Positions 3,936-47,780 of a DNA stretch of 64,000 nt are shown here, in pieces. Source of the stretch: Heptranchias perlo (taxonomy: Eukaryota); the NCBI RefSeq assembly GCF_035084215.1, contig NW_027139217.1, positions 62,001 to 126,000 on the forward strand, in the 5' to 3' direction. The notes below the pieces were generated by a model that made no database searches, was not told the DNA's origin, and saw only the letters and a list, made by a program, of their open reading frames with translations. The translations under genes were made by a program, and so were the position numbers. How positions within the stretch are numbered: position 1 is the first letter of the stretch; the number at the start of each line of letters is the position of its first letter.

Positions 3936-3955
3936 GGGGGGGGGGGGAAGCTGCA

Positions 3956-18305: not shown

Positions 18306-21300
18306 AATAGATATCAGATTCATTAATCGATATCAGATTCATTAATTGATATCAGATTCATCAATCGATATCAGATTCATTAATTGATATCAGTTTCATT
18401 AATTGATACCAGATTCATTAATCGATATCAGATTCATTAATCGATATCAGATTCATTAATCGATATCAGATTCATTAATTGATATCAGTTTCATTAATTG
18501 ATACCAGATTCATTAATCGATATCAGATTCATTAATAGATATCAGATTCATTAATCGATATCAGATTCATTAATCGATATCAGATTCATTAATTGATATC
18601 AGTTTCATTAATTGATACCAGATTCATTAATCGATATCAGATTCATTAATCGATATCAGATTCATTAATTGATATCAGTTTCATTAATTGATACCAGATT
18701 CATTAATCGATATCAGATTCATTAATCGATATCAGATTCATTAATTGAGATCAGTTTCATTAATTGATACCAGATTCATTAATTGATCAGTTTCATTAAT
18801 TGATACCAGATTCATTAATTGATCAGTTTCATTAATTGATACCAGTTTCATTAATTGATACCAGATTCATTAATTGATCAGTTTCATTAATTGATATCAG
18901 TTTCATTAATTGATACCAGATTCATTAATTGATATCAGTTTCATTAATTGATACCAGATTCATTAATTGATATCAGTTTCATTAATTGATACCAGATTCA
19001 TTAATTGATCAGTTTCATTAATTGATACCAGTTTCATTAATTGATATCAGATTCATTAATAGATACCAGTTTCATTAATTGATACCAGATTCATTAATTG
19101 ATCAGTTTCATTAATTGATATCAGTTTCATTAATTGATACCAGATTCATTAATTGATCAGTTTCATTAATTGATACCAGATTCATTAATTGATCAGTTTC
19201 ATTAATAGATACCAGTTTCATTAATTGATACCAGATTCATTAATTGATATCAGATTCATTAATTGATCAGTTTCATTAATTGATACCAGTTTCATTAATT
19301 GATACCAGATTCATTAATTGATATCAGATTCATTAATTGATATCAGATTCATCAATTGATACCAGATTCATTAATTGATATCAGATTCATTAATTGATAT
19401 CAGATTCATTAATTGATCAGTTTCATTAATTGATATCAGTTTCATTAATTGATACCAGTTTCATTAATTGATATCAGTTTCATCAATTATTACCAGATTC
19501 ATTAATTGATATCAGATTCATTAATTGATCAGTTTCATTAATTGATATCAGTTTCATCAATTGATACCAGATTCATTAATTGATATCAGTTCCATCAATT
19601 GATACCAGATTCATTAATTGATATCAGATTCATTAATTGATCAGTTTCATTAATTGATACCAGATTCATTAATTGATATCAGATTCATTAATTGATCAGT
19701 TTCATTAATTGATACCAGATTCATTAATTGATACCAGTTTCATTAATTGATGTCAGATTCATTAATTGATCAGTTTCATTAATTGATACCAGATTCATTA
19801 ATTGATATCAGTTTCATCAATTGATACCAGATTCATTAATTGATATCAGTTTCATTAATTGATCAGTTTCATTAATTGATACCAGATTCATTAATTGATA
19901 TCAGTTTCATTAATTGATATCAGTTTCATCAATTGATACCAGATTCATTAATTGATATCAGTTTCATTAATTGATACCAGATTCATTAATTGATATCAGT
20001 TTCATTAATTGATATCAGTTTCATCAATTGATACCAGATTCATTAATTGATATCAGATTCATTAATTGATCAGTTTCATTAATTGATTCCAGATTCATTA
20101 ATTGATACCAGTTTCATTAATTGATACCAGATTCATTAATTGATCAGTTTCATTAATTGATACCAGATTCATTAATTGATCAGTTTCATTAATTGATACC
20201 AGATTCATTAATAGATACCAGTTTCATTAATTGATATCAGTTTCATCAATTGATACCAGATTCATTAATTGATATCAGATTCATTAATTGATCAGTTTCA
20301 TTAATTGATATCAGTTTCATTAATTGATACCAGATTCATTAATTGATATCAGTTTCATCAATTATTACCAGATTCATTAATTGATATCAGATTCATTAAT
20401 TGATCAGTTTCATTAATTGATATCAGTTTCATCAATTGATACCAGATTCATTAATTGATATCAGTTCCATCAATTGATACCAGATTCATTAATTGATATC
20501 AGATTCATTAATTGATCAGTTTCATTAATTGATACCAGATTCGTTAATTGATATCAGATTCATTAATTGATCAGTTTCATTAATTGATACCAGATTCATT
20601 AATTGATACCAGTTTCATTAATTGATGTCAGATTCATTAATTGATCAGTTTCATCAATTGATACCAGATTCATTAATTGATATCAGTTTCATCAATTGAT
20701 ACCAGATTCATTAATTGATATCAGTTTCATTAATTGATCAGTTTCATTAATTGATACCAGATTCATTAATTGATATCAGTTTCATTAATTGATATCAGTT
20801 TCATCAATTGATACCAGATTCATTAATTGATATCAGTTTCATTAATTGATACCAGATTCATTAATTGATATCAGATTCATTAATTGATCAGTTTCATTAA
20901 TTGAATCCAGATTCATTAATTGATACCAGTTTCATTAATTGATACCAGATTCATTAATTGATCAGTTTCATTAATTGATACCAGATTCATTAATTGATCA
21001 GTTTCATTAATTGATACCAGATTCATTAATAGATACCAGTTTCATTAATTGATATCAGTTTCATCAATTGATACCAGATTCATTAATTGATATCAGATTC
21101 ATTAATTGATCAGTTTCATTAATTGATATCAGTTTCATTAATTGATACCAGATTCATTAATTGATATCAGTTTCATCAATTATTACCAGATTCATTAATT
21201 GATATCAGATTCATTAATTGATCAGTTTCATTAATTGATATCAGTTTCATCAATTGATACCAGATTCATTAATTGATATCAGTTCCATCAATTGATACCA

Positions 21301-22615
21301 GATTCATTAATTGATATCAGATTCATTAATTGATCAGTTTCATTAATTGATACCAGATTCATTAATTGATATCAGATTCATTAATTGATCAGTTTCATTA
21401 ATTGATACCAGATTCATTAATTGATACCAGTTTCATTAATTGATGTCAGATTCATTAATTGATCAGTTTCATCAATTGATACCAGATTCATCAATTGATA
21501 CCAGATTCATTAATTGATATCAGTTTCATTAATTGATACCAGATTCATTAATTGATATCAGATTCATTAATTGATCAGTTTCATTAATTGATTCCAGATT
21601 CATCAATTGATATCAGTTTCATTAATTGATACCAGATTCATTAATAGATATCAGTTTCATTAATTGATACCAGATTCATTAATTGATATCAGATTCATTA
21701 ATTGATACCAGATTCATTAATTGATATCAGTTTCATGACTTGATATCAGATTCATTAATTGATCAGTTTCATTAATTGATACCAGATTCATTAATTGATA
21801 TCAGATTCATTAATTGATCAGTTTCATTAATTGATACCAGATTCATTAATTGATACCAGATTCATTAATTGATCAGTTTCATTAATTGATACCAGATTCA
21901 TTAATTGATCAGATTCATTAATTGATACCAGATTCATTAATTGATCAGATTCATTAATTGATACCAGATTCATTAATTGATCAGTTTCATTAATTGATAC
22001 CAGATTCATTAATTGATCTCAGATTCATTAATTGATACCAGATTCATTAATTGAGATCAGATTCATTAATTGATACCAGATTCATTAATTGAGATCAGTT
22101 TCATTAATTGATACCAGATTCATTAATTGATCTCAGATTCATTAATTGATACCAGATTCATTAATTGAGATCAGTTTCATTAATTGATCAGATTCATTAA
22201 TTGATACCAGATTCATTAATTGATCTCAGATTAATTAATTGATACCAGATTCATTAATTGAGATCAGTTTCATTAATTGATACCAGATTCATTAATTGAT
22301 ACCAGATTCATTAATTGAGATCAGTTTCATTAATTGATCTCAGATTCATTAATTGATACCAGATTCATTAATTGATATCAGTTTCATTAATTGATATCAG
22401 ATTCATTAATTGATCTCAGATTCATTAATTGATATCAGATTCATTAATTGATCTCAGATTCATTAATTGATACCAGATTCATTAATTGATATCAGTTTCA
22501 TTAATTGATCAGTTTCATCAATTGATACCAGATTCATTAATTGATACCAGATTCATTAATTGATATCAGTTCATTAATTGAGATCAGATTCATTAATTGA
22601 TACCAGATTCATTAA
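18306..22615. repeat. 17/19-bp AT-rich satellite (CAGWTTCATTAATTGATAY)n, ~4.3 kb, with higher-order duplications
   Basis: Visible array; diagnostic variants (TTATTACC, GTTCCATC, GATGTCAG) recur at offsets of 875 and 818 bp. Confidence 0.97.
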
Positions 22616-23634
22616 GGGGACAGGACTCCTTTTCCCAGCCTCTCTCCTGAAGTTTTTTCCCAGTCGAGAGGGGCAGGTGACCAAAGTAACGGGATTTGGT
22701 GAATCGTCTGTCCCGCTCCTTGGTGACCTGGTGTTAGAATTGGGCGCACTCACCGCCCGGTCCGATTCTCACTCAGGGAATTAACTTTACAAAACTGTCG
22801 TCAACCTATTTAATGAATGACATGAAACTAATTAAAGTCTATGAAAAGATGAACCATTTTTGGAATCCCCATGAATCAACCTGTAACTTTGTGTTGCGGA
22901 CTGAAGGAAACGCTGACCTGGTTACCGAGTGAGGGGAAAATGTAAGAATGTTTGTGTTTTGTTTGTGAGACACTTTCCCGACTGTATTTAGGAGTCGGGT
23001 TAAAAATGCTGAGTCTTTCTGACCCCAGGGATGTGTTAAATGAAGAGGAACAGCCGATTGCCGCCCGCTTTCCAGAGGAGAAGGAACTCTCCCCGGAGCA
23101 AGTTGCAACATAATGAAAGATTTGCACCCGAATCAAATCAAGGAGCTTTGAGGAGTGAGGCCAGAGTGAGAATCGTTCGAGTCCGGAAAGCTCAGCATCT
23201 TCAGTGTTTGTAGAAATGGTCAGTGTTTCTCAGCCCAGGAATCTGGGGCAACCTTTGTTCAATTGAACAGGAGCGGGGCTTTGGATCAAACAAGAGTTTA
23301 GCAGCAAACAGTGTTCTTACTGGGAGTGGTGGGACTGAGAAATCCTTAAACAGCGGCAACCCTGGAAAGCAGAGCTCCAAATCTCGGCTTCAATAAAGTG
23401 CTGAACTGAGAGAGCGGAGGGCAGATGGGCATTGGATTCAATCCCAACTCACTGGATCGAAACAAGGCAGTGAGTGTGGGCGGAGTGGGATTCCGGGACC
23501 TGTGTCTGAGCTGCACCTCGATCCGTCCCGTTCAGTAAAGAGAGAGCGGCAGACGGCTCCCAGACACGGCCCAGACCGGGAGCGGGAGCGGCTGCATGAG
23601 AGAGCGGGGATCCTGCGCTGGGGTTGCGGCTGGC

Positions 23635-23875
23635 TGGCTGTCTGAGTCTGTCTCTGGCTGGTCTGAGTCTGTGTGGTCTGTGTCTGTCTGGTCTCTCTGT
23701 CTGTCTGTCTCTGTCTGTCTGAGTCTGTGTCTGTCTGGTCTCTCTGTCTGTCTGTCTGAGTCTGGCTGTCTGAGTCTGTGTCTGTCTCTGTCTGTCTGAG
23801 TCTGTGTCTGTCTGGTCTCTCTGTCTGTCTGTCTGAGTCTGTGTCTGTCTGGTCTCTCTGTCTGTCTGTCTGCTG
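23635..23875. repeat. Complex (TCTG)n microsatellite
   Basis: Visible; mirror of 3956-4316. Confidence 0.95.
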
Positions 23876-23904
23876 CAGCTTCCCCCCGCCCCCCCCCCCC
23901 CGCC

Positions 23905-26900
23905 CCCCGGGGAGACCCGGCCAATGCCCAAGTGATGATCGCCCTGGTGGAGCGACAACTCGCTGACGAGCTTTGGTCAGATCTCCGACGTTCCCCAGGC
24001 TGTGTAACCCTGGGCGACCCCCGAGTCCGAAGAATGGGATCGAATTTCCAGCCGATAATAAAATCAACCAGGGAGCGGAGGGAGGATAAAGCAAGAGGCC
24101 GGAGGGAGGAGGAGCCCAGAGCTTTAGGAGGGGACCAGACCCTATTCCCTCTGCTTCTCCACCCCCAGTGATGGAGCCAGGACCTGGGACAGAGGGAAGA
24201 TCCTCCGGGCTGCCTCCCAGGAGAGCACGGGCTCAATTTCGAGGGACTCAATCTGGATCTTTCAGACTTCCAACAGGAGCAGATAAATGATGCAGTCCTC
24301 CAAATCATAAAACAAGAGGGAGTAGTGAGAAGTGGGCACCCCACTGAGGGTAAAACAAAAGGTGCGGGGCCTTATTATCCGGTAAAGAATGACCTTCTAT
24401 ACAGGGAGAGTGCGGGGCAGCAGCAGCAAGTTGACCAGTTGCTGGTGCCACGGACACAGAGGCAGATAGTCCTTGACTTGGCCACAAGCAACTATTCAGA
24501 GCTCACCTGGGGACAGAGCAAACTCGGGAGGGGCTGTTGAGGTGGGTCTTGTGGCCAGGGGTGGATGAAGTGATCCGGGGGTTCTGTCCCTCCTGTCCAC
24601 AGTGTCAGCTGTGTGGGCCCAGGCCTCACTATCACGCTCCATTAATCCCTCTCCCCGGAATTGAGGGGCCTTTCGAAAGGATCGGGATGGACCAGTGGGC
24701 CCGCTGGAGGGGTCAGCGCGAGGTCACCAATATATGTTGGGAGTTGTTGCCTGTTCCAGGCCCGATCCTGAGGCGATTCCACCGAGGATCACGGCCCCTA
24801 AAACCATAGCGGGCGGGTCAGTGAGAGCGTTCCCCGGGGTAGGGATCCCAAAGGACCAGGGACTCCCTCTGTGTCCACACTGATGAAGGGCCTCTGTCCC
24901 CTCCTCCATATTAAAAGTCTGAGGCCCTCCGTGGATCAACCCTCAAACCGAGGGCCGTGTGGAGAGGGTCAGTGGGACCCGCGAGTATGTTCAAAAAGGC
25001 CCGGCATAAAGATGGGTCAAATCGGGATCCTTCACTGCCCCGTCTCAGGCCTGCAGTCGGGGAGGGAGGGGCCTCGGTCAGGGAGGGAGGGGCCTCGGTC
25101 AGGGAGGGAGGGGCCTCGGGGGAGGGAGGGGCCTCGGTCAGGGAGGGAGGGGCCTCGGTCAGGGAGGGAGGGGCCTCGGGGGAGGGAGGGGCCTCGGTCA
25201 GGGAGGGGCCTCGGTCAGGGAGGGAGGGGCCTCGGTCAGGGAGGGAGGGGCCTCGGTCAGGGAGGGAGGGGCCTCGGTCAGGGAGGGAGGGGCCACGGTC
25301 AGGGAGGGAGGGGCCTCGGTCAGGGAGGGAGGGGCCTCGGTCGGGGAGGGAGGGGCCTCGGTCGGGGAGGGAGGGGCCTCGGTCGGGGAGGGAGGGGCCT
25401 CGGGGGAGGGAGGGGCCTCGGTCAGGGAGGGAGGGGCCTCGGGGGAGGGAGGGGCGTCGGTCAGGGAGGGAGGGGCCTCGGGGGAGGGAGGGGCCTCGGT
25501 CAGGGAGGGGCCTCGGTCAGGGAGGGAGGGGCCTCGGTCAGGGAGGGAGGGGCCTCGGTCAGGGAGGGAGGGGCCTCGGTCAGGGAGGGAGGGGCCTCGG
25601 TCAGGGAGGGAGGGGCCTCGGGAGAGGGAGGGGCCTCGGTCAGGGAGGGAGGGGCCTCGGTCAGGGAGGGAGGAGCCTCGGTCAGGGAGGGAGGGGCCTC
25701 GGTCAGGGAGGGAGGGGCCTCGGTCGGGGAGGGAGGGGCCTCGGTCGGGGAGGGAGGGGCCTCGGTCGGGGAGGGAGGGAGGGGCCTCGGTCGGGGAGGG
25801 AGGGAGGGGCCTCGGTCGGGGAGGGAGGGAGGGGCCTCGGTCGGGGAGGGAGGGAGGGGCCTCGGTCGGGGAGGGAGGGAGGGGCCTCGGTCGGGGAGGG
25901 AGGGAGGGGCCTCGGTCGGGGAGGGAGGGGCCTCGGTCGGGGAGGGAGGGGCCTCGGTCGGGGAGGGAGGGGCCTCGGTCGGTCGGGGAGGGAGGGGCCT
26001 CGGTCGGGGAGGGGCCTCGGTCGGGAGGGAGGGGCCTCGGGCGGGGAGGGAGGGGCCTCGGTCGGGGAGGGAGGGGCCTCGGGCGGGGAGGGAGGGGCCT
26101 CGGTCCTCCAATAATATTATTGAGCACAGAGTGAAGATGGGGCGCGGATTGAGGCGGTTCCCCCCATAGTGAGGGCTCATTTAGAGAGGGTGCAGGAAGA
26201 GCAGAGAGCCCAGTGTAAGAGAGGCTGCAGTCAGGAGGTTCCGACCAGGAGACCGAGTTACGGTCCTCGTTCCCACACCTGAAACAAGCTCTTTGCAGGG
26301 TGGCAGGGACTTTAGGAGGTTCTAGAGGCTGTGGGCCCAGTGAACTATAAGGTCAGGCAACCTCAGAGAAGGAAGCCTGACCAGAAAGACCATGTGCCCC
26401 TCCTGAAGCCATGGAGAGAGAGAGGCCCTCGCAGTGATGGAGAAAGCACTAGGGGGGCCCTGGCTCCAAGGTACAAAGCCCAGTTCACCTCTCTAGTGAG
26501 CTGCCTGAGGATCAGTGCAGGCAGGCTCAGCACCTGGGAGATGGAACCTGCAATGTATTCACATCTGGGCCTGGGAGGACGGGGGCCATCTGCTCTCACC
26601 TGGTGACACCACCAGGAGTGACAATAAAGGTCAGACCGGACCGAATCCCAGAAGCCAAACGGAGGGAGGTTCGCCAGGAGATTCCGAGGGTGTTGATCTT
26701 CGGGCTGATTGAAGAATCACGGTGAACGGAGCAGCCCCATTGTGTTGGTTCTGAATCCCGATGGGAATTGGCGATTCTGAAATGACTTTCGGAAACTGAA
26801 TGAGGATTGAAATCCGATGCTTTCCCGATGCCCCGGGGGGATGAGTTGATTGAGAGATTGGCGAAGGCCCCTTCGATCTTACCCCCTTCGATCTGACCAA

Positions 26901-30261: not shown

Positions 30262-30310
30262 ATGATTGGACTGATAGTTCTGGTCGTTCTGTGTGGAGGG
30301 GTCTCTGCAG
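30262..30310 (+). CDS. MHC class I heavy chain exon 1 (signal peptide MIGLIVLVVLCGGVSA)
   Basis: GCAATGA start context, hydrophobic leader ending VSA, phase-1 donor G|GTGAGT joining in frame to GSHSLRY. Confidence 0.9.
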
Positions 30311-30349
30311 GTGAGTAATGGGGTCTGAGAGGGGCTCAGTGCCAGGCTG

Positions 30350-31639: not shown

Positions 31640-31900
31640 GCTCTCACTCTCTCCGGTATTTTCTGACCGCAATGACCCCGATCCCTGGTCTGCCGGAGTT
31701 TGTTGCTGTCGGGTATGTGGACGAGGCCCAGTTTGTGATGTACGACAGCAAGCGGAGGGAGTTGATCCCACGGCTGTGGTGGATGGAGGAGAGGGAGGGG
31801 CCCGAGAACTGGGAGCGGAAGAAACAGCTGGTGCGAGGCGAGGAACAGTGGATGAAGGATTATATTCAGATCCTCCTGACCCGGACCAACCAGTCGGTCG
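31640..31900 (+). CDS. MHC class I heavy chain exon 2 (alpha1 domain), shark UAA-like
   Basis: GSHSLRYFLTAMTPIPGLPEFVAVGYVDEAQFVMYDS...EGPENWER...LLTRTNQSVG; TTTCAG acceptor, G|GTGAGT donor, 261 nt, N86 glycosylation site NQS. Confidence 0.95.
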
Positions 31901-31944
31901 GTGAGTTCACTCCCTCCCAACGCACTCGGGCTCTTCCTGCGGAG

Positions 31945-32492
31945 TCAGGGGGCGGAGAGCGGGGTCAGGGAGCGGGGAGCGGGGAGCGGGGTCAGGGAGC
32001 GGGGTCAGGGAGCGGGGAGCGGGGTCAGGGAGCGGGGAGCGGGGTCAGGGAGCGGGGAGCGGGGTCAGGGAGCGGGGAGCGGGGTCAGGGAGCGTGTCGG
32101 GGAGCAGGGTCGGGGCGGGGAGCGGGGTCAGGGGTCGTGGTCGGGGAGCGGGGTCGGGGCGGGGTCAGGGGTCAGGGAGCTGGGGCGGGGAGATGGGTCG
32201 GGGAGTGGGGTCGGGGTGGGGAGCGGCGTCAGGGGGCGGGGAGTGGGGTCAGGGGGCATGGAGTGGGGTCAGGGAGTGAGGTCAGAGGCAGGGAGCGGGG
32301 TCAGGGAGCGGGGTCAGGGGGCGGGTAGTGGGTCAGGGAGCGAGGTCAGGGTGCAGGGAGCGAGGTCAGGGGGCAGGGAGCGGGGTCAGGGGGCGGGGAG
32401 TGGGGTCAGGGGGCATGGAGCGGGGTCAGGGAGCGAGGTCAGGGGGCAGGGAGCGGGGTCAGGGGGCAGGGAGCGGGGTCAGGGGGCGGGGC
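31945..32492. repeat. Irregular G-rich tandem repeat (CGGGGTCAGGGAG...) at the start of intron 2
   Basis: Visible G-run array on the sense strand. Confidence 0.9.
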
Positions 32493-32498
32493 CAGGGG

Positions 32499-32600
32499 TT
32501 GACATGCGATATTCTGACGGTCATGGACTCGGACCAACCAGTCGGGCGGTGAGTCCTCGGCCTCAAACCGCACTCGGGCTGATCCCGGGGTCAGGAGTGG
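32499..32600 (+). pseudogene. Relic 3' end of a second, diverged MHC class I alpha1 exon with its splice donor and intron start
   Basis: GATATTCTGACGGTCATGG-ACTCGGACCAACCAGTCGGGCG|GTGAGT...CGCACTCGGGCT parallels 31861-31932; encodes DILTVM(fs)TRTNQSGG. Confidence 0.85.
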
Positions 32601-32654
32601 GCAGGGCTGCTCCCCCTGGAAGTGAGGAAGTTCCACCCCCTCCCCCACTGTGTG

Positions 32655-35290
32655 ACATAAGAACATAAGAAATAGGAGCAGGAGTAGGCCATCCGGCCCC
32701 TCGAGCCTGCTCCGCCATTCATAGAATCATAGAATTATAGAATCGTAGAAAATTTATGGCACAGAAGGAGGCCATTCGACCCATCGTGTCCGTGCCGGCC
32801 AAAAATGTGCCACCCAGCCGAATCCCACTTTCCAGCACTTGGTCCGTAGCCCTGTAGGTTATGGCACTTCAGGAGCACATCCAGGTACTTTTTAAATGAG
32901 TTGAGGGTTTCTGCCTCTCCCACCCTCTCAGGCGGTGAGTTCCAGACCCCCACCACCCTCTGGGTGAAAAAAATTCACCTCAGCTCCCCTCTAATCCTTC
33001 TACCAATTACTTTAAATCCATGCCCCCTGGGCATTGACCTCTCTGCTAAGGGAAATAGGTCCTTGCCCCTCATAATTTTATACACCGGGGAACATAGGAA
33101 CAGGAGTAGGCCATTCAGCCCCTCGAGCCTGCTCCACCATTTGATAAGATCATGGCTGATCTGTGATCTCACTCCATATACCTGCCTTTGGCCCATATCC
33201 CTTAATACCTTTGGTTGCCAAAAAGCTATCCATCTCAGATTTAAAATTAGCAATTGAGCTAGTATCAATTGCCGTTTGCAAAAGAGAGTTCCAAACTTCT
33301 ACCACCCTTTGTGTGTAGAAATGTTTTCTAATCTCACTCCTGAAAGGTCTGGCTCTAATTTTTAGACTGTGCCCCCGACTCCTAGAATCCCCAACCAGCG
33401 GAAATAGTTTCTCTCTATCCACCCTATCTGTTCCTTTTAATATCTTATAAACTTCGATCAGATCACCCCTTAACCTTCGAAACTCTAGAGAATACAACCC
33501 CAATTTGTGTAATCTCTCCTCGTAACTTAACCCTTGAAGTCCGGGTATCATTCTAGTAAACCTACGCTGCACTGCCTCCAAGGCCAATATGTCCTTCCGA
33601 AGGTGCGGTGCCCAGAACTGCTCACAGTACCTCAATTAAATCTCCCCTCAGCCTCCTTTGTTCAAAAGAAAACAACCCCAGCCCATCCAATCTTTCCTCA
33701 TAGCTAAAATTCTCCAGTCCTGGCAACATCCTCGCAAATCTCCTCTGTACCCTCTCTAGTGCAATCACATCTTTCCTGTAATGTGGTGACCAGAACTGTA
33801 CACAGTACTCAAGCTGTGGCCTAACCAATGTTTTATACAGTTCCAGCATAACCTCCCTGCACTTATATTCGATGCCTTGGCCCAATAAAGGAAAGTATTC
33901 CATCTGCCTTCTTAACCACCTTATCTGTCCTGCTACCTCGGGGATCTGTGGACATGCACTCCAAGGTCCCTCTCTTCCTCGACACCTCTCAGTATCCTCC
34001 CATTTATTGTGTGCTCCCTTGCCTTGTTTGCCCTCCCCAAAGGCACTACCTCACACTTCTCTGGATTGAATTCCATTTGTCACTTTTCTGCCCACCTGAC
34101 CAGTCCATTGATATCTTCCTGCAGTCTACAGCTTTCCTCCTCACTATCAACCGCACGGTCAATTTTTGTATCATCTGCAAACTTCTTAATCATGGCCCTA
34201 CATTTAAGTCCAAATCATTAATATATATCAAAAAAAGCAAGAGACCCAGTATCGAGCCTTGTGGAACCCCACTGGAAACAGCCTTCCAGTCACAAAAACA
34301 CCCGTCGACCATTTCCCTTTGCTTCCTGCCACTGAGCCAATTTTGGATACAATTTGCCACTTTCCCTTGGATCCCATGAGCTTGTACTTTTTTGACCAGT
34401 CTGCCATGTGGGACCTTGTCAAAAGCCTTGCTAAAATCCATGTATTCTACATCAAACGCACTACCCTCATCGACCCTCCTTGTTACCTCCTCAAAAAATT
34501 CAATCAAGTTGGTCAGACATGACCTTCCCTTAACAAATCCATGCTGACTGTCCTTGATTACTCCGTGCCTTTCTAAGTGACGGTTTATCCTGTCCCTCAC
34601 AATTGATACCAATAATTTGCCCACCACTGAGGTTAGACTGACTGGCCTATAATTACTCGGTCTCTCTCTTTCTCCCTTTTTAAACAACAGTAGAACGTTA
34701 GCAGTCCTCCAATCCTCCGGCATCACGCCTGTATCCAGGGAGGATTGGAAAATGATGGTCAGAGCCTCCGCTATTTCCTCTCTTGCTTCTTTCAACAACC
34801 TGGGATACATTTCATCCGGGCCTGGTGATTTGTTTACTTTCAAAGATGCTAATCCCCTTAATATTTCCTCTCTCACTGTTTATCCCATCCAATATTTCAC
34901 ACTCCTCCTCCTTAACTACAATCTCTGCATCGTCCCTCTCCTTTGTGAAGACAGACGCAAAGTATTCATTAAGAACCAAACCCACATCTTCCCCCTCCAC
35001 ACACAGGTTACCTTTTTGGTCTCAATCAGATCATGACTGATCTTCGACCTCAACTCCACTTTGCCGCCCGATCCCAATATCCCTTGTTTCCATCCCAGCC
35101 TTGAATATATTCAATGACTGACCATCCACAGCTCTCTGGGGGAGAGAATTCCAAAGATTCACAGCCCTCTGAGTGAAGAAATTCCTCCTCATCTCAGTCT
35201 TGAATGGCCGACCCCGAATCCTGCGACAATGCCCCCGAGTTCTAGACTCTCACAGGGGAAACAATCTCTCAGCATCTACACTGTCAAACT
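32655..35290 (-). mobile_element. Cluster of nested CR1 LINE fragments in intron 2
   Basis: Several 3' tails (32655, 32720, 33090, 35020) and RT ORFs 33150..33635, 33622..33903, 34190..34876 (DFSKAFDKVPH, GVPQGS). Confidence 0.9.
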
Positions 35291-35317
35291 CCCTCTACTA
35301 CCCACCCCCCCCGCAGC

Positions 35318-36846
35318 CCGTGTCTCTCTATTCCCCCTGTGTCTCTCTATTCCCCCCCGTGTCTCTCTATTCCCCCCCCGTGTCTCTCTATTCCCCCCCG
35401 TGTCTCTGTATTCCCCCCCCCGTGTCTCTCTATTCCCCCCCCGTGTCTCTCGATTCCCCCCCCTGTGTCTCTGTATTCCCCCCCCGTGTCTCTGTATTCC
35501 CCCCCCGTGTCTCTCTATTCCCCCCCCGTGTCTCTCTATTCCCCCCCGTGTCTCTCTATTCCCCCCCCGTGTCTTTCTATTCCCCCCCTGTGTCTCTCTA
35601 TTCCCCCCCACCCCGTGTCTCTCTATTCCCCCCCCGTGTCTCTCTATTCCCCCCCCGTGTCTCTCTATTCCCCCCCCGTGTCTCTGTATTCCCCCCCCGT
35701 GTCTCTCTATTCCTCCCCCGTGTCTCTCTATTCCCCCCCCCGTGTCTCTCTATTCCCCCCCCGTGTCTCTCTATTCCCCCCCCGTGTCTCTCTATTCCCC
35801 CCCCCCGTGTCTCTCTATCCCCCCCCGTGTCTCTCTATTCCCCCCCCGTGTCTCTCTATTCCCCCCCCGTGTCTCTCTATTCCCCCCCCGTGTCTCTCTA
35901 TTCCCCCCCCCGTGTCTCTCTATTCCCCCCCCCGTGTCTCTCTATTCCCCCCCCGTGTCTCTCTATTCCCCCCCCGTGTCTCTCTATTCCCCCCCCGTGT
36001 CTCTCTATTCCCCCCCACCCCGTGTCTCTCTATTCCCCCCCACCCCGTGTCTCTCTATTCCCCCCCCGTGTCTCTCTATTCCCCCCCCGTGTCTCTCTAT
36101 TCCCCCCCGTGTCTCTCTATTCCCCCCCCCGTGTCTCTCTATTCCCCCCCACCCCGTGTCTCTCTATTCCCCCCCACCCCGTGTCTCTCTATTCCCCCCC
36201 ACCCCGTGTCTCTCTATTCCCCCCCCGTGTCTCTCTATTCCCCCCCCGTGTCTCTCTATTCCCCCCCCGTGTCTCTCTATTCCCCCCCCGTGTCTCTCTA
36301 TTCCCCCCCACCCCGTGTCTCTCCATTCCCCCCACCCCGTGTCTCTCTATTCCCCCCCCCGTGTCTCTCTATTCCCCCCCGTGTCTCTCTATTCCCCCCC
36401 CGTGTCTCTCTATTCCCCCCCGTGTCTCTCTATTCCCCCCCCCGTGTCTCTCTATTCCCCACCCCGTGTCTCTCTATTCCCCCCCACCCCGTGTCTCTCT
36501 ATTCCCCCCCCGTGTCTCTCTATTCCCCCCGTGTCTCTCTATTCCCCCCCGTGTCTCTCTATTCCCCCCGTGTCTCTCTATTCCATCCCCGTGTCTCTCT
36601 ATTCCCCCCCCCGTGTCTCTCTATTCCTCCCCGTGTCTCTCTATTCCCCCCCCCCGTGTCTCTCTATTCCCCCCCCGTGTCTCTCTATTCCCCCCCCGTG
36701 TCTCTCTATTCCCCCCCCGTGTCTCTCTATTCCCCCCCCGTGTCTCTCTATTCCCCCCCGTGTCTCTCTATTCCCCCCCCGTGTCTCTCTATTCCCCCCC
36801 CGTGTCTCTCTATTCCCCCCCGTGTCTCTCTATTCCCCCACCCCGT
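35318..36846. repeat. ~21-bp C-rich minisatellite (CCCCCCCGTGTCTCTCTATTC)n
   Basis: Visible array with variable C-run length; source of the spurious 540-620 aa ORFs. Confidence 0.97.
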
Positions 36847-37095
36847 GAAGTTAAGAAACACTTCGACACTCAAAGGGTGGGAGAAGTTTGGAACTCTCCT
36901 CCGCAAATGGCAGTTGGTGCGAGCTCAATTCGTAATTTTAAATCTGAGATTGATAGATTTTTGTTCACCAAAGATATTAAGGGATGTGGGGCTAAGGCGG
37001 GGAAATGGACTGAGGTCACAGATCAACCATGATCTCATCGAATGGCGGAACAGGCTCGAGGGGCCAAATGGCCTCGTCCTGTTCCTTTGTTCCTG
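36846..37095 (+). mobile_element. CR1 3' end fragment
   Basis: KKHFDTQRVGEVWNS...FKSEIDRFL and CR1 3' UTR. Confidence 0.85.
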
Positions 37096-37099
37096 TAAT

Positions 37100-38380
37100 A
37101 AAGTTTCAATACTCTACAGGGAGTGGGCTGGTTTAGTTGACAGGCAACAGCAAGGGCACTGGCGAAGTGGCAGGGATGGGACAGGAGTGCTGTCATCCTG
37201 AGAGTGGACACTCGGTTCATGTTCCATGGAGCCACTGCCACTTGTTGTCTCCTGTTATGCACCACCTTCTCCTGCAAGAAAGCGGGACGTGTGTCGGTGA
37301 GTGTCCTGCAAGATGTTTGGGTGATGAGCCTGTCATGGTTGAATAGCTAGTGCGTGTGGCCTGTGTGTTGTGGGTGGGTGGCTTGCAGCAGTGGTAATGT
37401 GTGAGGGTGAGAGGAAGCTTCTGGTGGGAAGAGTTGAGTACTGATGGAAAGAGTTTGTTGGTATGTGGGTGATGAGGGTGTCGTGTGTGGGGCAGTTGGT
37501 TGGAGACACCACTTGACAGTTGACCTCACTCACCTTGACCACTCATGTCAGAGCATTGAACTTCTTCCTGCACTGCGTCCATGTTCATGATGCTGTGGGC
37601 CTGGCATTGACTTCGTCCCCCGCTGCCTTGGGAGCATATATCTGGAGGGCCTCTTGACCCCCCGCGGATATAGGATGTCCCTCCTTCTGTCCACCTCTTG
37701 CACCAAGGCCTCTCGTGCATCATCAGAGAACCTTGGTGCACGCACTCTCACAGGCCTGGTACCAACTCAGATCGGCAGATTGGTGAGGTCTGACCTGCAG
37801 ATTGGAGGATGTGGGATTTAGTAATGTGCAACCTTTATTCAATGTTTTAACATAACTCAACAGTTTGTAAACATAGGGAGGGGACCTGTATCTGTGTTTT
37901 ACGTGTGCGATGTCTGATCTCCGTTCAGACTCTGTCCGAACCCGTATCTTATATTTTGCAAATATCAGAGTCCCTCAAACGTTGAGCAGCCCAGTTGTTG
38001 CTCATTAAAAATTCCACAGTTCCCATCATCATCGTGTTTCACGATATTGCAGCACAGATTCACTTCACCATTGACTTCCTCCACTTCCTGCAGACACACT
38101 GCACCTTCCCTTTAAGTGGTGCAGGCTGCCTTTAAGTGGTGCGAGCCACTCGTGATATCTGGGCCCCTGCTGGTGAGCAGCCACTCACAGTGCAGGGAGT
38201 GCTGGCTGGACGCAGCAATCAGGTAAATCACCAGGCAGCACGAATGTTACGTTCTTCCCACATCTCACCGACCGGGCACGGGTTCATCACGACCCGTGGA
38301 AGTGGTTTTCTCGGGCGGACCGAAAACACACCTCTTACTATAAGTTCAGGAACGATCGGGACACTCGCTGGGAGCACGGG
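37100..38380 (-). mobile_element. Harbinger/PIF-like transposon remnant (Myb/SANT-like ORF)
   Basis: ORF 37548..37751 RAPRFSDDAREALVQEVDRRRDILY; homologous to 6630-7320. Confidence 0.7.
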
Positions 38381-39877
38381 GGGTCCTTTAAATACACAGA
38401 TTGTGGTCCAGGGGGTCCCTTAAATATACAGATTGAGGTTCGGGGGTCCTTTAAATACACTGATCGGGGTCCGGGGGGTCCTTTAAATACACTGATCGGG
38501 GTCCGGGGGGTCCTTTAAATACACTGATCGGGGTTCGGGGGGTCCTTTAAATACACTGATCGGGGTCCGGGGGGGTCCTTTAAATACACAGATCGGGGTC
38601 CGGGGGTCCTTTAAATACACTGATCGGGGTCCGGGGATCCTTGAAATACACAGATCGGGGTCCGGGGGTCCTTTAAATACACTGATCGTGGTCCGGGGGT
38701 CCTTTAAATACACTGATCGGGGTCCGGGGGATCCTTTAAATACACTGATCGGGGTCCGGGGGTCCTTTAAATACACAGATCGTGGTCCGGGGATCCTTTA
38801 AATACACTGATCGGGGTCCGGGGATCCTTTAAATACACTGATCGGGGTCCGGGGATCCTTTAAATACACTGATCAGGGTCCGGGGGGTCCTTTAAATACA
38901 CAGATCGTGGTCCGGGGATCCTTTAAATACACTGATCGGGGTCCAGGGATCCTTTAAATACACTGATCGGGGTCCGGGGGGTCCTTTAAATACACTGATC
39001 GGGGTCCGGGGATCCTTTAAATACATTGATCGGGGTCCGGGGGTCCTTTAAATACACTGATCGGGGTCCGGGGGTCCTTTAAATACACTGATCGGGGTCC
39101 GGGGGTCCTTTAAATACACTGATCGAGGTCCGGGGGGTCCTTTAAATACACTGATCGTGGTCCGGGGGGTCCTTTAAATACACTTATCGGGGTCTGGGGG
39201 TCCTTTAAATACATTGATCGAGGTCCGGGGGTCCTTTAAATACATTGATCGGTGTCCAGGGGGTCCTTTAAATACACTGATCGGGGTCCGGGGGTCCTTT
39301 AAATACACTGATCGGGGTCCGGGGGTCCTTTAAATACACTGATCGAGGTCCGGGGGATCCTTTAAATACACTGATCGGGGTCCAGGGGGTCCTTTAAATG
39401 CACTGATCGGGGTCCGGGGGATCCTTTAAATACACTGATCGGGGTCCAGGGGTCCTTTAAATACACTGATCGGGGTCCGGGGGTCCTTTAAATAAACTGA
39501 TCGGGGTCCGGGGGTCCTTTAAATACACTGATCGGGGTCCAGGGGTCCTTTAAATGCACTGATCGGGGTCCGGGGGTCCTTTAAATACACTGATCGGGGT
39601 CCGGGGGGTCCTTTAAATACACTGATCGGGGTCCGGGGGTCCTTTAAATAAACTGATCGAGGTCCGGGGGTCCTTTAAATACATTGATCGGTGTCCAGGG
39701 GGTCCTTTAAATACACTGATCAGGGTCCGGGGGTCCTTTAAATACACTGATCGGGGTCCGGGGGATCCTTTAAATACACTGATCGGAGTCCGGGGGTCCT
39801 TTAAATACACTGATCGGGGTCCGGGGGTCCTTTAAATACACTGGTTGGGGTCCGGGGGGTCCTTTAAATACACTGAT
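38380..39877. repeat. ~30-bp minisatellite (GGGTCCTTTAAATACACTGATCGGGGTCCG)n
   Basis: Visible array ending ~140 bp before exon 3. Confidence 0.97.
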
Positions 39878-40020
39878 TGTCTCCGTAACCCATCTGCCCA
39901 CTGCCCCCCTCCCCCCACCCCCGGCTTCCCAGGTGATTTCCGACTGTGAGCTGGGTGGTGATGGGATGGTGGACGGGGTCTCGGACTGGGTCTGACTGAC
40001 CCCCTGTGTTTGATTGACAG

Positions 40021-40293
40021 GAATCCACATGATCCAGCAGATGACCGGCTGTGATCTGGGGGATGATGGGATCACCAGTGGGTTCTTTCAGTACGCCTGG
40101 GACGGGGAGGATTTCATCAACTTCGACAGGGATCAGATGGGATGGGTAACACCGGTACAGTGGGGAGAGATCACCAAGAACAGGTGGGACCAGGACACGC
40201 CCCGGAACCAAGGGGTGAAGGGATACCTGGAGGGGGAGTGCATCGAGTGGCTGAGGAAATACCTCGAGTACGGAGAGAGGGAACTGAGGGCCG
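40021..40293 (+). CDS. MHC class I heavy chain exon 3 (alpha2 domain)
   Basis: GIHMIQQMTGCD...QYAWDGEDFI...WVTPVQWGEITKNRW...GYLEGECIEWLRKYLEYG; both Cys present; GACAG acceptor, G|GTGAGT donor, 273 nt. Confidence 0.95.
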
Positions 40294-40700
40294 GTGAGTG
40301 AGGGGGGAGTGAGAGTCGGTGAGTGAGGGGGGGAGTGAGAGTCGGTGAGTGAGGGGGGAGTGAGAGTAGGTGAGTGAGGGGGGGAGTGAGAGTCGGTGAG
40401 TGAAGGGGGGGACTGAGAGTCGGTGAGTGAGGGGGGAGTGAGAGTCGGTGAGTGAAGGGGGGGACTGAGAGTCGGTGAGTGAAGGGGGACTGAGAGTCGG
40501 GGAGTGAGGGGAGGAGTGAGATTCGGTGAGTGAGGGGGGGGAGTGAGAGTCGGTGAGTGAGGGGGGGGAGTGAGAGTCGGTGAGTGAGGGTGGGAGTGAG
40601 AGTCAGTGAGTGAGGGGGGGACTGAGAGTCGGTGAGTGAGGGGGGAGTGAGAGTCGGTGAGTGAGGGGGGAGTGAGAGTCGGTGAGTGAGGGGGGGACTG
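40294..40700. repeat. ~25-27-bp minisatellite whose unit begins with the exon 3 splice donor
   Basis: Unit GTGAGTGAG(G)nAGTGAGAGTCG, ~16 copies, most recreating CG|GTGAGT. Confidence 0.93.
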
Positions 40701-41108: not shown

Positions 41109-41384
41109 TTACTCCCCAAGTGTTTCTTTCTGTGGACAAGGCCTCAGACTCTAAACCGGCCCAACTCTCCTGCCTGGTCACGGGGTTTTACCCTCGAGAT
41201 ATCGAACTCACCCTCCTGAGAAATGGACGGCCGATCTCAGACACTGATTCCACTGGCATCCTGCCCAACCACGATGGCACCTACCAGATCAAGAGATGGG
41301 TTGAGATCGGGCCCGAGGACGGAGCCACCTACTCCTGTCAGGTGGATCACAGCAGCAAAGCAGGAGTGGAGACCCGAGACTGGG
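41109..41384 (+). CDS. MHC class I heavy chain exon 4 (alpha3, Ig C1-set)
   Basis: LSCLVTGFYPRDI...ILPNHDGTYQ...YSCQVDHSS; CTCAG acceptor, G|GTAAGA donor, 276 nt. Confidence 0.95.
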
Positions 41385-42161: not shown

Positions 42162-42287
42162 ATGGGACGTTCCGAGTGACTCCGGGATCTTCAGAGGGAC
42201 CGAATCTGGGTTTAATTGTTGGAATTGTTCTTGCTGCCATCGCCCTGATTGCTCTCGTCATTGGTGCCGTTGTCTGGAAGAAGAGAG
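42162..42287 (+). CDS. MHC class I heavy chain exon 5 (connecting peptide + transmembrane)
   Basis: DGTFRVTPGSSEGPNLGLIVGIVLAAIALIALVIGAVVWKKR; long polypyrimidine tract + CAG acceptor, G|GTAGGA donor; read-through gives GRK-stop at 42298. Confidence 0.9.
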
Positions 42288-42412
42288 GTAGGAAATGAGG
42301 ACAGGATCTGTCCCACACGGGGATGAGCAGGTTCAAATGTTACAGCACAAATGGCAGAACATTAGAGACTTCCCATAGACATGTGGGAAACTCCGACACA
42401 GTCCAGTGATGG

Positions 42413-43419: not shown

Positions 43420-43685
43420 CGGACAAGAGGCACAATTTGGAGGAACGCAGAGATCTCGGAGGGTTGTAGGGCTGGAGGAGGTTACAGAGATAGGGAGGGG
43501 GCGAGGGCCATGGAGGGATTTGAAAACAAGGATGAGAATTTTAAAATCGAGGCGTTCCCGGACCGGGAGCCAGTGTAGGTCAGTGAGCACAGGGGGTGCT
43601 GGGAGAACGGGACTTGGTGTGAGTTAGGATACGGGAGCAGAGTTTTGGATGAGTTGAAGTTTACGGAGGGTGGAAGGTGGGAGGA
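43420..43685 (-). mobile_element. L2-type LINE fragment
   Basis: LTDLHWLPVRERLDFKILILVFKSLHG, typical of the L2 ORF2 C-terminus. Confidence 0.75.
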
Positions 43686-45214
43686 TGAAGGGAGCTGATC
43701 ACTCCTTGATTCTGGGTGCAGTACAGTCCGAACAAAGGTTGTGTGTATTTGGCGACTGAATGATGGAGTAAATTTAGTTACTGAGTATTGTTAACATCTT
43801 TAATCGAAATTGGGATTGTGTATTGAGTGTTTATTTTTGTTGTAATAAAAGGAACAAAAAGGGAAGGACTCTTTGTGTCTGTGACTAAGTTTGTCTAATT
43901 TTATCGACGTTTATCGAAGTTTCTCTCTCCACTCTGTACCTTGTTTAAGCCGAGCCTCACAGGGTTAATGAGAAAATGCTTCAGGTTTCAGTGCGTGACG
44001 TGGATCCTGAGTTTAAAAGGAGTGTAAACTACCGCAGACAGTGAGCTCTGTCTGAGCTCAGTGCTGTTATGGCCGATATGGAAGGACAAATATCTGCCCA
44101 TATAGCTGAGAAACTTCCGAAGTGGGAGGAAGAGTTTCAGGGCATGGAAAGCCAGGCAGACACGATGAGGGCGTGTCAGGGGAGATTTCATCAATTAATT
44201 CAGGACAAGGAACTTAAAGAGAAACAAGAGAAAGCCGTATGGTTCTTAGCGATGGGCATTCAGTCCAAAACAAGGACGGAGCGGCAGGAGAAGAAGGTTG
44301 TTTTTCGGACTGGAGGGAGGTGGAGCACCGAAACAACGGGCGATACACGGGCCAATTTAGCGCCCAGAGGGTTTTGAAAAAGAACTGGGAATGAAGGAAG
44401 AGATTTTTAAACAGGAGCAGAGAGACAAGGAAAAGGCTTTGGACAAAGAGGGGAAGAATAAAGAGATGGTGGAGAGACGAGTCCAGTCTCTCGAAAACCA
44501 CGTTGAGTATTTCCAGACAAAGGTTCTCAGTGAGAACTTGAGAGATTTAAAGCTCTGAATAATAATCAGGAACTCTTGTGTTTGAAATTGCGAAGAGAAC
44601 ATGGTGATTTCTGAGCAACAGTGAGAAGCCAGTTTGAGTTGGTTAAACAGGTTGGGGAGGGAGATGAAGTGAGTCGCACTCACTGTCAGCGAGAGACACT
44701 AAAGTTCCCGGCGGTGTTGAGAGTAAAAGGGGGGGATAGTGTGAACGATAGTGCCGCCTGGTGAAGAGGGGGAAGGAAGGGAGTTGGATGAGGGAGACTG
44801 GGAAGATTTGGCAGGGAAGGCAGCACAGTCCCATAGTGGGGATTGTGAGCCCAGACTCAGAGAGCTGCCCCCACCTATGGAGCCAGTGATTCAGGTAAAG
44901 AGAGAGGACGCAGACAGAGACCCAGGAGAGGGAGTGAGTCACTATGTAGGATTGGATAGTCAGTAGGTCCTTCAGGAACGAGCCAAACAAGTCCCCGAGT
45001 TTGACAGGAAAGGGGACGTGATGAGACATTGTGTAGAAGGGGAACAAACGGCTGTGCCCAGCGGCATGGATGATGGGGGGAAGTGAGATTGTTACCGTGG
45101 ACCTTGGGGGGGCTGTTTGGAGCGCTGACAGCAAACCGTAAAAATGGTTCCGGGGATTGGCGACAAACACAGGAAGCTGGATTAACAGTGATCGGGTTTA
45201 ATAGAAGGGAACAC

Positions 45215-45930
45215 ACCGAGGGTCTAAAAATACCATCAGGGGCCCACTGAGGGTCTAAAAATACCATCAGGGGCCCACTGAGGGTCTAAAAATACCATCA
45301 GGGGCCCACTGAGAGTCTAAAAATACCATCAGGGGCCCACTGAGGGTCTAAAAATACCATCAGGGGCCCACTGAGAGTCTAAAAATACCATCAGGGGCCC
45401 ACTGAGGGTCTAAAAATACCATCAGGGGCCCACTGAGGGTCTAAAAATACCATCAGGGGCCCACCGAGGGTCTAAAAATACCATCAGGGGCCCACTGAGG
45501 GTCTAAAAATACCATCAGGGGCCCACTGAGGGTCTAAAAATACCATCAGGGGCCCACTGAGAGTCTAAAAATACCATCAGGGGCCCACTGAGGGTCTAAA
45601 AATACCATCAGGGGCCCACTGAGGGTCTAAAAATACCATCAGGGGCCCACTGAGGGTCTAAAAATACCATCAGGGGCCCACTGAGAGTCTAAAAATACCA
45701 TCAGGGGCCCACTGAGGGTCTAAAAATACCATCAGGGGCCCACTGAGAGTCTAAAAATACCATCAGGGGCCCACTGAGAGTCTAAAAATACCATCAGGGG
45801 CCCACTGAGGGTCTAAAAATACCATCAGGGGCCCACTGAGGGTCTAAAAATACCATCAGGGGCCCACTGAGGGTCTAAAAATACCATCAGGGGCCCACTG
45901 AGGGTCTAAAAATACCATCAGGGGCCCAGT
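45215..45930. repeat. 31-bp minisatellite inside gag
   Basis: Unit CCACTGAGGGTCTAAAAATACCATCAGGGGC, ~23 copies. Confidence 0.97.
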
Positions 45931-46534
45931 GAATATCGCGAGGTGTTTGCCAATCGATTATAACGACTCTATGATCGGGTGTACGGTCCAGGATTGAACG
46001 GTGGGACTTCGGGCAGCGTCCCACAGTGAGCCACTGGTTTAGAAGCCTGAACGGTCAGGCCCGACCCTATTTGCCGTCTGCCCTTGTGGGATTCGATCCC
46101 AGAGGAGGCCAATCAGAGTGAGGCGTGGGTCCTTCAGAGAATGACCCGAACCTGGGAAAACCGGAAAGTGGGTGGTGTGCCCGGGGTAAGTCTGGTCACA
46201 GCTCGGAAAAATGAGGGACCAGGTACTCAGAAACAGGGTCAGGATAAGAAAGGGAGCGGGAAACCAACAGAAAAACCCATAAATACAAGTGTCAGGGTGA
46301 GAGGGAGCAGTGGGATGAAATGTTCCAACTGTAGGGAGACGGGACACCTTGCTCGGGACTGTGGGCAGGACTGGAAGGGAGATCAGGCTGGTGAGGAAAG
46401 AGGCCGGGCAGGATTGGACCCTGACTTGGCAGAGTTTGGGAGAGAGCTCGATAACACATTCCATGGGGCGATTCCGAGTGTCCCCGGCACCAGGATCACT
46501 GATGGTGGGAGACAAGAGAGGAGACAAAGAGACG

Positions 46535-47780
46535 GGGTCCGGGCACAGTGACCCGGGGGGAGGGGGGTCACAGTGACCCGGGGGGAGGGGGGTCACAGTG
46601 ACCCGGGGGGAGGGGGGGGTCACAGTGACCCGGGGGGAGGGGAGGGTCTGGTCACAGTGACCCGGGGGGAGGGGGGGGGTCACAGTGACCCGGGGGAGGG
46701 GAGGGTCCGGTCACAGTGACCGGGGGAGGGGAGGGTCACAATGACCCGGGGGAGGGGAGGGTCCGGTCACAGTGACCCGGGGGAGGGGAGGGTCACAGTG
46801 ACCCGGGGGAGGGGAGGGTCCGGTCACAGTGACCCGGGGGAGGGGAGGGTCACAGTGACCCGGGGGAGGGGGGGGGTCCGGTCACAGTGACCCGGGGGAG
46901 GGGAGGGTCACAGTGACCCGGGGGAGGGGGGGGGTCCGGTCACAGTCACCCGGTGGGGGGGGGGGGTCACAGTGACCCGGGGGAGGGGAGGGTCCAATCA
47001 CAGTGACCGGGGGGAGGGGAGGGTCCGGTCACAGTGACCCGGGGGAGGGGAGGGTCCGGTCACAGTGACCGGGGGGAGGGGAGGGTCCGATCACAGTGAC
47101 CGGGGAGAGGGGAGGGTCACAGTGACCCGGGGGGAGGGGAGGGTCCGGTCACAGTGACCCGGGGGAGGGGAGGGTCACAGTGACCCGGGGGAGGGGAGGG
47201 TCCGGTCACAGTGACCCGGGGGAAGGGAGGGTCCGGTCACAGTGACCCGGGGGAGGGGAGCGTCCGGTCACAGTGACCCGGGGGAGGGGAGGGTCACAGT
47301 GACCCGGGGGAGGGGAGGGTCACAGTGACCCGGGGGAGGGGAGGGTCCGGTCACAGTGACCCGGGGGAAGGGAGGGTCCGGTCACAGTGACCCGGGGGAG
47401 GGGAGGGTCCGGTCACAGTGACCCGGGGGAGGGGAGGGTCCGGTCACAGTGACCCGGGGGAGGGGAGGGTCACAGTGACCCGGGGGAGGGGAGGGTCCGG
47501 TCACAGTGACCCGGGGGAAGGGAGGGTCCGGTCACAGTGACCCGGGGGAGGGGAGGGTCACAGTGACCCGGGGGAGGGGAGGGTCCGGTCACAGTGACCC
47601 GGGGGAAGGGAGGGTCCGGTCACAATGACCCGGGGGAGGGGAGGGTCCGGTCACAGTGACCCGGGGGAGGGGAGGGTCACAGTGACCCGGGGGAGGGGAG
47701 GGTCCGGTCACAGTGACCCGGGGGGGGGAGGGTCCGGTCACAGTGACCCGGGGGAGGGGTGGGTCACAGTGACCCCGGGC
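46535..47780. repeat. 26/31-bp G-rich minisatellite with core GGTCACAGTGACC
   Basis: Visible; lies where protease/RT core would be expected. Confidence 0.97.

Follow-up and report, generated by a model that had tools for sequence, protein, structure and literature searches.

Decayed exon stubs at both ends of intron 2 in an MHC class I gene of Heptranchias perlo: a candidate scar of exchange between paralogs

Introduction

How does the end of an alpha1 exon, complete with splice donor and intron start, come to lie inside the second intron of an MHC class I gene that has a functional alpha1 exon of its own? This question is raised by a 64,000-nt stretch of DNA from Heptranchias perlo, the whole of which was analysed here and is called the window below. 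A first-pass annotation had described such a relic and had read it as the footprint of alpha1 replacement by an out-of-register exchange, noting that alpha1 can be shuffled across a long intron 2 in fish class I genes. Such shuffling is documented in the accessible parts of PMC1971071 and PMC6523485, and intron 2 measures 8120 nt in the present gene. In those parts, and in the part of PMC4364491 that was available, the process is described for salmonid UBA and zebrafish class I genes; the same part of PMC4364491 terms the breakpoints and the mechanism of the shuffling unclear.

Results

A single class I gene with a long second intron

The window holds a single gene for an MHC class I heavy chain, on the + strand (Table 1). 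Exons for a leader, alpha1, alpha2, a C1-set alpha3 and a transmembrane (TM) segment follow each other in this order with phase-1 junctions, and both groove domains score above the Pfam MHC_I cut-off of 28.3 bits (alpha1 78.9, alpha2 88.7), as alpha3 does above that for C1-set. Intron 2 runs from 31901 to 40020. The nearest named proteins are from H. perlo itself; compared with P0002, the leader is identical, alpha3 99%, alpha1 81% and alpha2 79% alike. If the donor at 42288 is read through, exon 5 meets a stop at 42296-42298. No match to the cytoplasmic tail of P0015 was found in the 21.7 kb behind the TM exon, a stretch in which short exons can escape detection and past which, beyond the window, they can also lie.

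Six of the eight anchor residues considered (Y7, Y59, R84, T143, K146, W147, Y159 and Y171) are kept, the exceptions being Y59N and K146R. The residues are given in HLA numbering. The anchor positions were taken from alignments to nurse shark UAA*01, 6LUP, and the list of eight from the accessible part of PMC4364491; 6LUP was identified as nurse shark UAA*01 by way of the part of PMC8236899 at hand. Because only six of the eight anchors are kept and no cytoplasmic exon was found downstream in the window, the gene would, judged from its sequence, best be called Ia-like rather than classical.

Table 1. Features of the class I gene and of its intron 2, in positions of the window.
Feature	Position	Strand	Remarks
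Exon 1, leader peptide	30262..30310	+	16/16 residues identical to H. perlo P0002 and P0015; donor GTGAGT at 30311
Exon 2, functional alpha1	31640..31900	+	Y59 to N; Pfam MHC_I 78.9 bits (cut-off 28.3); 81% to P0002; aligned to 6LUP
Donor of functional exon 2 and start of intron 2	31901..31938	+	
G-rich minisatellite	31939..32497	+	Periods of 13, 20 and 33 nt; 63% G; 15 non-overlapping motifs of G-quadruplex type
Stub 1, decayed alpha1 exon tail	32499..32548	+	Codon homology clear over 32508-32548, where one base is inserted; lacks a usable upstream acceptor
Second GTGAGT donor and second intron-2 start	32549..32597	+	First 17 nt nearly identical to the intron start of another class I gene
Stub 2, decayed alpha2 exon head	39929..39980	+	Reads QVISDCELGGDG...; its counterpart in exon 3 lies 105 nt further downstream
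Exon 3, alpha2	40021..40293	+	K146 to R; Pfam MHC_I 88.7 bits; 77-79% to three H. perlo proteins; aligned to 6LUP
25-nt tandem array of exon-3 end and donor	40285..40697	+	About 16 copies
Exon 4, alpha3	41109..41384	+	Pfam C1-set 65.2 bits; 99% to P0002 and P0015
Exon 5, transmembrane	42162..42298	+	95.6% to P0002 over 45 residues; donor 42288

A decayed alpha1 exon tail behind exon 2

The relic described by the first-pass annotation is indeed present. Directly behind the G-rich array of 31939-32497, as it had stated, lies a diverged copy of an alpha1 exon end with its donor and intron start, offset by 648 nt from the functional one (donors at 31901 and 32549). With BLASTN, 31878-31949 and 32526-32595 were 80.6% alike over 72 columns (E 1e-12), and stub 1 reached a local score of 67, whereas 200 Markov-resampled intron sequences gave 30 at most. 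The residues that had been read from it are borne out as well: stub 1 reads DILTVM, one extra base and TRTNQSG, and exon 2 reads YIQILLTRTNQSV. Under an alpha1-tail profile, the DILTVM block by itself falls within the top 0.37% of 127,960 six-residue windows.

These scores speak against a chance similarity. A join of two genes made by the assembler at the G-rich array would be another trivial source of the stub, and the connection from exon 2 to stub 1 across the array is indeed supplied by the window's assembly alone. The contig comparison covered 32494-32654 on four of nine runs, eight of the nine being from one sample and none being on record as RNA. A single contig of DNA run X1 spans this interval with 0 differences and so links the array end, stub 1 and the intron beyond; one X5 contig, which is RNA only by guess, likewise covers stub 1 without a difference. 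Since X1 and X5 are from the same sample, possibly the source of the window, they exclude a local assembly error only weakly. The frameshift and the stops, however, imply that the assembler did not simply attach an intact exon end at this place, and we regard both chance and an assembly join as barely credible.

Could the second donor be in use, either for an extended or alternative alpha1 exon or for regulation by unproductive splicing? Its GTGAGT is intact, the X5 contig that may be RNA covers the stub, and the 648-nt offset is divisible by three, yet the read-through frame contains three stops, two of which lie inside stub 1 or at its start, and no polypyrimidine tract was found ahead of the stub. 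The X5 contig passes the donor unbranched, and the four contig sets (two of them RNA by guess) contained no joint or loose end at 32548, although this negative is weak because contigs lose rare forms. Since read-through meets three stops and no spliced branch was seen, stub 1 looks dead; it is most likely inert, and splicing from 32549 appears very improbable.

A second stub before exon 3

The far end of intron 2 holds a second stub, a decayed alpha2 exon head, which is an addition to the first-pass annotation. In a self-comparison, 39929-39967 and exon 3 were 79.5% alike over 39 nt (E 5.6e-4), and the score of the stub was reached by none of 200 resampled introns and none of 1000 resampled local stretches. 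Its nucleotide score of 38 is equalled by a low-complexity match of exon 2 elsewhere, and the identification of stub 2 is therefore based on the protein profile. In this profile, which was built from 33 alpha2 starts, stub 2 came second of 127,924 windows with 19.1 bits, between exon 3 (34.9 bits) and the next window (8.5 bits). We found no recognisable acceptor, or remnant of one, before it. Both stubs are presumably without function of their own.

Read from exon 2 to exon 3, the intron consists of its start, the array, the alpha1 tail, a second intron start, the core, the alpha2 head and the intron end, and the 7.3-kb core between the stubs is made up mostly of mobile elements and arrays. 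This nested order cannot arise by a single tandem duplication; it can be produced by one insertion or by two separate events.

The stubs are nearer to other class I sequences than to the neighbouring exons

Both stubs have decayed, and each resembles other class I sequences more than it does its neighbouring exon. For stub 1 this agrees with the earlier view that it is no recent copy of the adjacent exon. At 80% likeness, the contigs gave three partial matches beyond stub 1 itself; none was a diverged copy of the full stub, a result that does not imply its absence from paralogs. The first is a gene (X1, X5, X6) whose alpha1 ends in ALS followed by RTNQSG, referred to here as the ALS gene; it has 1 difference from 32530-32565 (35/36 nt), as against 6 for the own exon (30/36). 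A short X1 contig has 2 differences in 32 nt from 32526-32557, as against 4 for the own exon, and an exon end of organism B has 8 differences from 32532-32580, the own exon likewise having 8. Past the donor, where loose ends were compared by eye, stub 1 and the ALS gene both go on with TGA.CC, while the functional intron start and the organism B exon end share a TC..TTCC continuation. This suggests that there are two old types of intron start, and that stub 1 belongs to the type other than that of the functional one. Neither the ALSRTN ending nor that of organism B was found among 256 proteins (a search of representatives gave 150).

Counts of minimum codon changes point the same way. Among 35 rows, stub 1 is 2 changes from two Triakis classical alleles, 4 from Pristiophorus P0012 and Scyliorhinus P0006, 5 from H. 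perlo P0021 and Squalus P0041, 7 from its own exon (8 actual) and 8 from P0015. Stub 2, ranked against 34 of 36 rows with P0034 and P0037 omitted, is 4 changes from H. perlo P0021, 5 from Squalus P0041 and 7 from its own exon (8 actual), and the G that follows CEL in it occurs otherwise only in the four hexanchiform-type rows among these 34. The first-pass annotation had further expected the relic to group with genes closest to this alpha2/alpha3. In that direction, an AL.R ending, which is that of the ALS gene, was present in 5 of 10 rows with the alpha3 type of this gene and in 1 of 25 others, a count in which the alpha3 of P0018 is known only in part.

The likeness of stub 1 to other genes has to be read with a caveat. 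Its mean codon distance to the two protein groups is equal (7.6 vs 7.5), which leaves the clades unseparated, and DIQ.LM endings also occur within the clade of the functional alpha1 (P0006, distance 4). Because both other contigs are nearer to stub 1 than the own exon is, and because the informative stretches are just 32-49 nt long, stub 1 may simply have kept the family consensus while exon 2 diverged. The contrast of 6 differences with 1 is accordingly no more than a slight pointer to another gene.

Domain trees place the provable break between alpha2 and alpha3

Trees were built from 35-36 rows per domain, with P0020, P0027-P0029 and non-shark matches left out. For the AU tests, P0070 and P0086, both of them long, and P0037, a partial row, were also omitted, and the groups compared in these tests were named after the free trees had been seen. 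The alpha1 domain of this gene is sister to that of P0002 within a clade of 16 rows from multi-copy shark genes (100/98), which we label the WERKK clade. Its alpha2 domain falls with three H. perlo proteins (94/87; 98/87 in another tree), and these fall with the WERKK clade (97/88). The alpha3 domain lies across a 100/99 branch, beside Squalus P0041, Pristiophorus P0012 and others, and is thus of the Squalus/Pristiophorus class I type, which by the trees and AU tests is not the usual partner of this alpha1. A placement of alpha3 in the WERKK clade was rejected (AU p 1.3e-6), as was an alpha2 that follows alpha3 (p 0.0016). There was no rejection of an alpha2 that follows alpha1 (p 0.238), nor of a single clade for the four alpha1 rows of hexanchiform type (p 0.107).

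Exchange between paralogs therefore belongs to the history of this gene, and its provable break lies in intron 3, between alpha2 and alpha3, not in intron 2. This bears directly on the proposal that alpha1 had been replaced by an out-of-register exchange. One part of the proposal stands, in that stub 1 is nearer to other genes; the other part is not supported, since alpha1 and alpha2 are compatible, both fall with the same clade, and the break comes after alpha2. A replacement of alpha1 only is thus no more than partly supported, and it is further weakened because a single crossover on the alpha1 side leaves stub 2, before exon 3, unexplained. Agreement between the alpha1 and alpha2 trees had been named beforehand as part of the evidence against the proposal, and such agreement was found in part (100/98 and 97/88; p 0.107 and 0.238).

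The rows from other genes have mosaic histories too. P0002 and P0015 combine identical alpha3 domains with alpha1 domains of different clades, the four alpha2 rows of hexanchiform type form one cluster, and the free alpha1 and alpha2 trees differ for P0015 and P0021 and agree for this gene.

As a separate observation, shark class I genes have two deeply split alpha3 types, and the present gene combines a WERKK alpha1-alpha2 with the Squalus/Pristiophorus type. H. perlo P0021 and P0015 have sister alpha1 domains and different alpha3 types.

Tandem arrays at the exon borders

Tandem arrays make up about 44% of the window and border most exon edges. The unit of the G-rich minisatellite resembles a motif found once per intron start. 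The array at the exon-3 donor contains copies of the exon end that are unlike it: each of the 14 extra copies counted departs from the functional end, always at the same two bases. Because these copies differ from their exon, local duplication followed by change is a real process at this locus. The copies read RV and not RA, and RV-type endings were found in 11 of 14 WERKK rows and in 0 of 19 others. The surroundings of exon 3 thus seem to derive from the WERKK clade, which would make the core of intron 2 the foreign part. The 25-nt exon-end/donor pattern had 0 matches in metagenome contigs.

The same array also amounts to a row of potential alternative GTGAGT donors, 25-26 nt apart.

Origin of the stubs

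We favour the explanation, with a probability of roughly 40%, that the stubs are the two ends of a segment of a classical-type sister gene that was copied out of register into intron 2. The event would have begun with a break or a replication stall in the G-rich minisatellite, whose position makes it the presumable starting point, and with repair by a template switch to the paralog. Synthesis would have entered exon 2 of the paralog some 50 nt short of the exon's end, copied the intron 2 that follows and the opening codons of exon 3, and then returned to the host's own intron end. Since the host kept both of its own splice sites, the protein would have been unaffected and the event neutral; the stubs could then have decayed neutrally, and mobile elements and minisatellites would have come to form most of the present 8.1-kb intron. 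Several lines of evidence lead us to this choice. One insertion gives the order exon 2, array, alpha1 tail, core, alpha2 head; the flanks agree with each other, with alpha1 and alpha2 in the same clade and an exon-3 donor array that ends in RV; the stubs are nearer to paralogs by nucleotides, by type of intron start and by codon changes; and paralog exchange is known in this gene, whose alpha3 is rejected from the clade (p 1.3e-6). The fuller statement, that the entire intron of a classical-type gene, together with a stub of each flanking exon, was inserted at a minisatellite prone to form G-quadruplexes within an Ia-like gene's intron, is offered tentatively and is best regarded as doubtful.

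The most serious rival assumes that two tandem duplications of about 100 nt arose independently, each across a splice site. Splicing would have continued from the first donor and to the second acceptor, growth of the minisatellite would have stretched the first duplication to 648 nt, and the exons would have changed later by point mutation and in-register gene conversion, so that the stubs preserve older states. Amplification across a splice site is certain at the exon-3 donor, with 16 copies and the two-base change in 14 of 14; most exon borders adjoin an array; stub 2 has a period of 105 nt; and stub 1 resembles a DIQTLMTR ending that is shared by both sides of the alpha1 tree. The non-coding intron start that follows stub 1, however, fits another gene better than its supposed twin, and the intron-start type of that twin is common to another species, which calls for a further conversion event. 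There is also no recognisable acceptor remnant before stub 2, and two events plus conversions are needed where one insertion would do. On balance, we consider local duplication rather unlikely. The crossover proposed by the first-pass annotation, in which a new leader-alpha1 half was joined to a classical-type exon-2 tail and downstream half, would leave stub 2 as a separate and probably older relic. It can draw on the ALS-RTNQSG gene as the nearest relative of stub 1 and on the enrichment of that ending with this alpha3 (5/10 vs 1/25), on the identical alpha3 and differing alpha1 clades of P0002 and P0015, on the four hexanchiform-type alpha2 rows that fall together, on the fair proximity of both stubs to Squalus P0041, a bearer of this alpha3 type (5 and 5 changes), and on the intron-2 shuffling documented in salmonids in the accessible parts of PMC1971071 and PMC6523485. 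Against it, alpha1 and alpha2 are in the same clade and their agreement is not rejected (p 0.238, 0.107), whereas an alpha2 that follows alpha3 is (p 0.0016); P0015, with its near-identical alpha3, is not near stub 1 (8 changes); and alpha2 is just 79% alike to that of P0015, whereas salmonid recombinants have identical downstream halves. We judge this crossover to be unlikely, and prefer the copied paralog segment to it.

Relation to known systems

The gene resembles salmonid UBA and zebrafish class I genes, as far as these are described in the parts of the sources at hand, in being a fish class I gene whose intron 2 is long (8.1 kb; more than 10 kb in trout) and whose domains differ in history. 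In those systems the crossover is in register and is known from pairs of cDNAs with identical downstream halves, and the same parts describe no exon remnants; here, by contrast, stubs lie at both ends of the intron, alpha2 is 77-79% alike to its nearest relatives, and the break lies between alpha2 and alpha3. Among the three H. perlo cluster representatives there was no partner with a near-identical alpha2 and downstream part but a different alpha1; P0015 is 99% alike in alpha3 and 79% in alpha2. Because a partner with an identical downstream half was not found, we have not filed the case as salmonid-type shuffling.

Among sharks, the available part of PMC10751288 describes Ia-like genes beside the Ia gene and proposes that recombination between the two may be inhibited by zinc-finger genes. 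None of the proteins compared here bore the name of a shark nonclassical lineage (UBA, UCA, UDA, UEA or UFA). The present gene is like these elasmobranch MHC-Ia-like genes in being UAA-like, in the partial loss of anchors (6/8 kept) and in having several related genes, but unlike that suggestion of inhibited recombination, its domain mosaic indicates that exchange did occur in the lineage. P0002 and P0015 share with it an identical leader and a 99% alpha3, and P0002 also the alpha1 clade and a KKRGRK read-through end; unlike this gene, P0002 keeps Y59 and K146, and it is 81% alike in alpha1 and 79% in alpha2. Homogenisation of alpha3 within species, reported for fish class I in the part of PMC4364491 consulted, has its likeness here in the near-identical alpha3 domains on genes with divergent alpha1. 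Unlike what is described in that part, there are two ancient alpha3 types in the set of one species (P0021 vs P0002/P0015).

The stubs are likely an unusual visible scar of a known process, the exchange of class I domains. If the transplant from a paralog is true, they would be a physical and datable record of exchange between loci, classical versus Ia-like, in sharks, and fossils of peptide-binding sequences that the gene has lost. Fish class I shuffling is so far known from mismatched cDNAs; the stubs would give exact junctions and would make three mechanisms separable by the pattern of presence and absence across paralogs. In addition, they would demonstrate that shark Ia and Ia-like genes have exchanged sequence, a process suggested to be inhibited (PMC10751288, in the part available). 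If they are local duplications, the case is an ordinary one. We found no description of exon stubs in class I intron 2 in the literature searched, in which subscription papers are sparsely covered, so that this argues only weakly for novelty.

Other features of the window

Several further features were noted in the window and in the protein record. A large recent inverted duplication (149-6204 and 18306-26105), whose minisatellites are mirrored and whose arms stand about 12 kb apart, ends about 4 kb upstream of the gene. Its unique parts are 99.7% (2790-3947 vs 25051-23894) and 99.1% (4300-5330 vs 23645-22621) alike, and it could be real or a fold-back of the assembly. A decayed LTR retroelement occupies 43684-51165, 1.4 kb behind the TM exon; its repeats (43684-43975 and 50874-51165) are 87% alike, and fragments of zinc-knuckle and RNase H-like type lie in short broken frames. 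This element may be related to the missing cytoplasmic exons, and P0002 ends alike. Two copies of a 0.7-kb dispersed repeat, 87% alike, lie upstream of the gene (6634-7317) and in intron 2 (37231-37914). Among the protein matches, P0027 and P0029 are mammal-like class I sequences labelled Vibrio parahaemolyticus on contigs of less than 600 nt, labels that likely reflect contamination in the public record. Finally, 55185-62160 is a 7-kb array with a 48-nt unit that forms an open 16-residue repeat in one frame.
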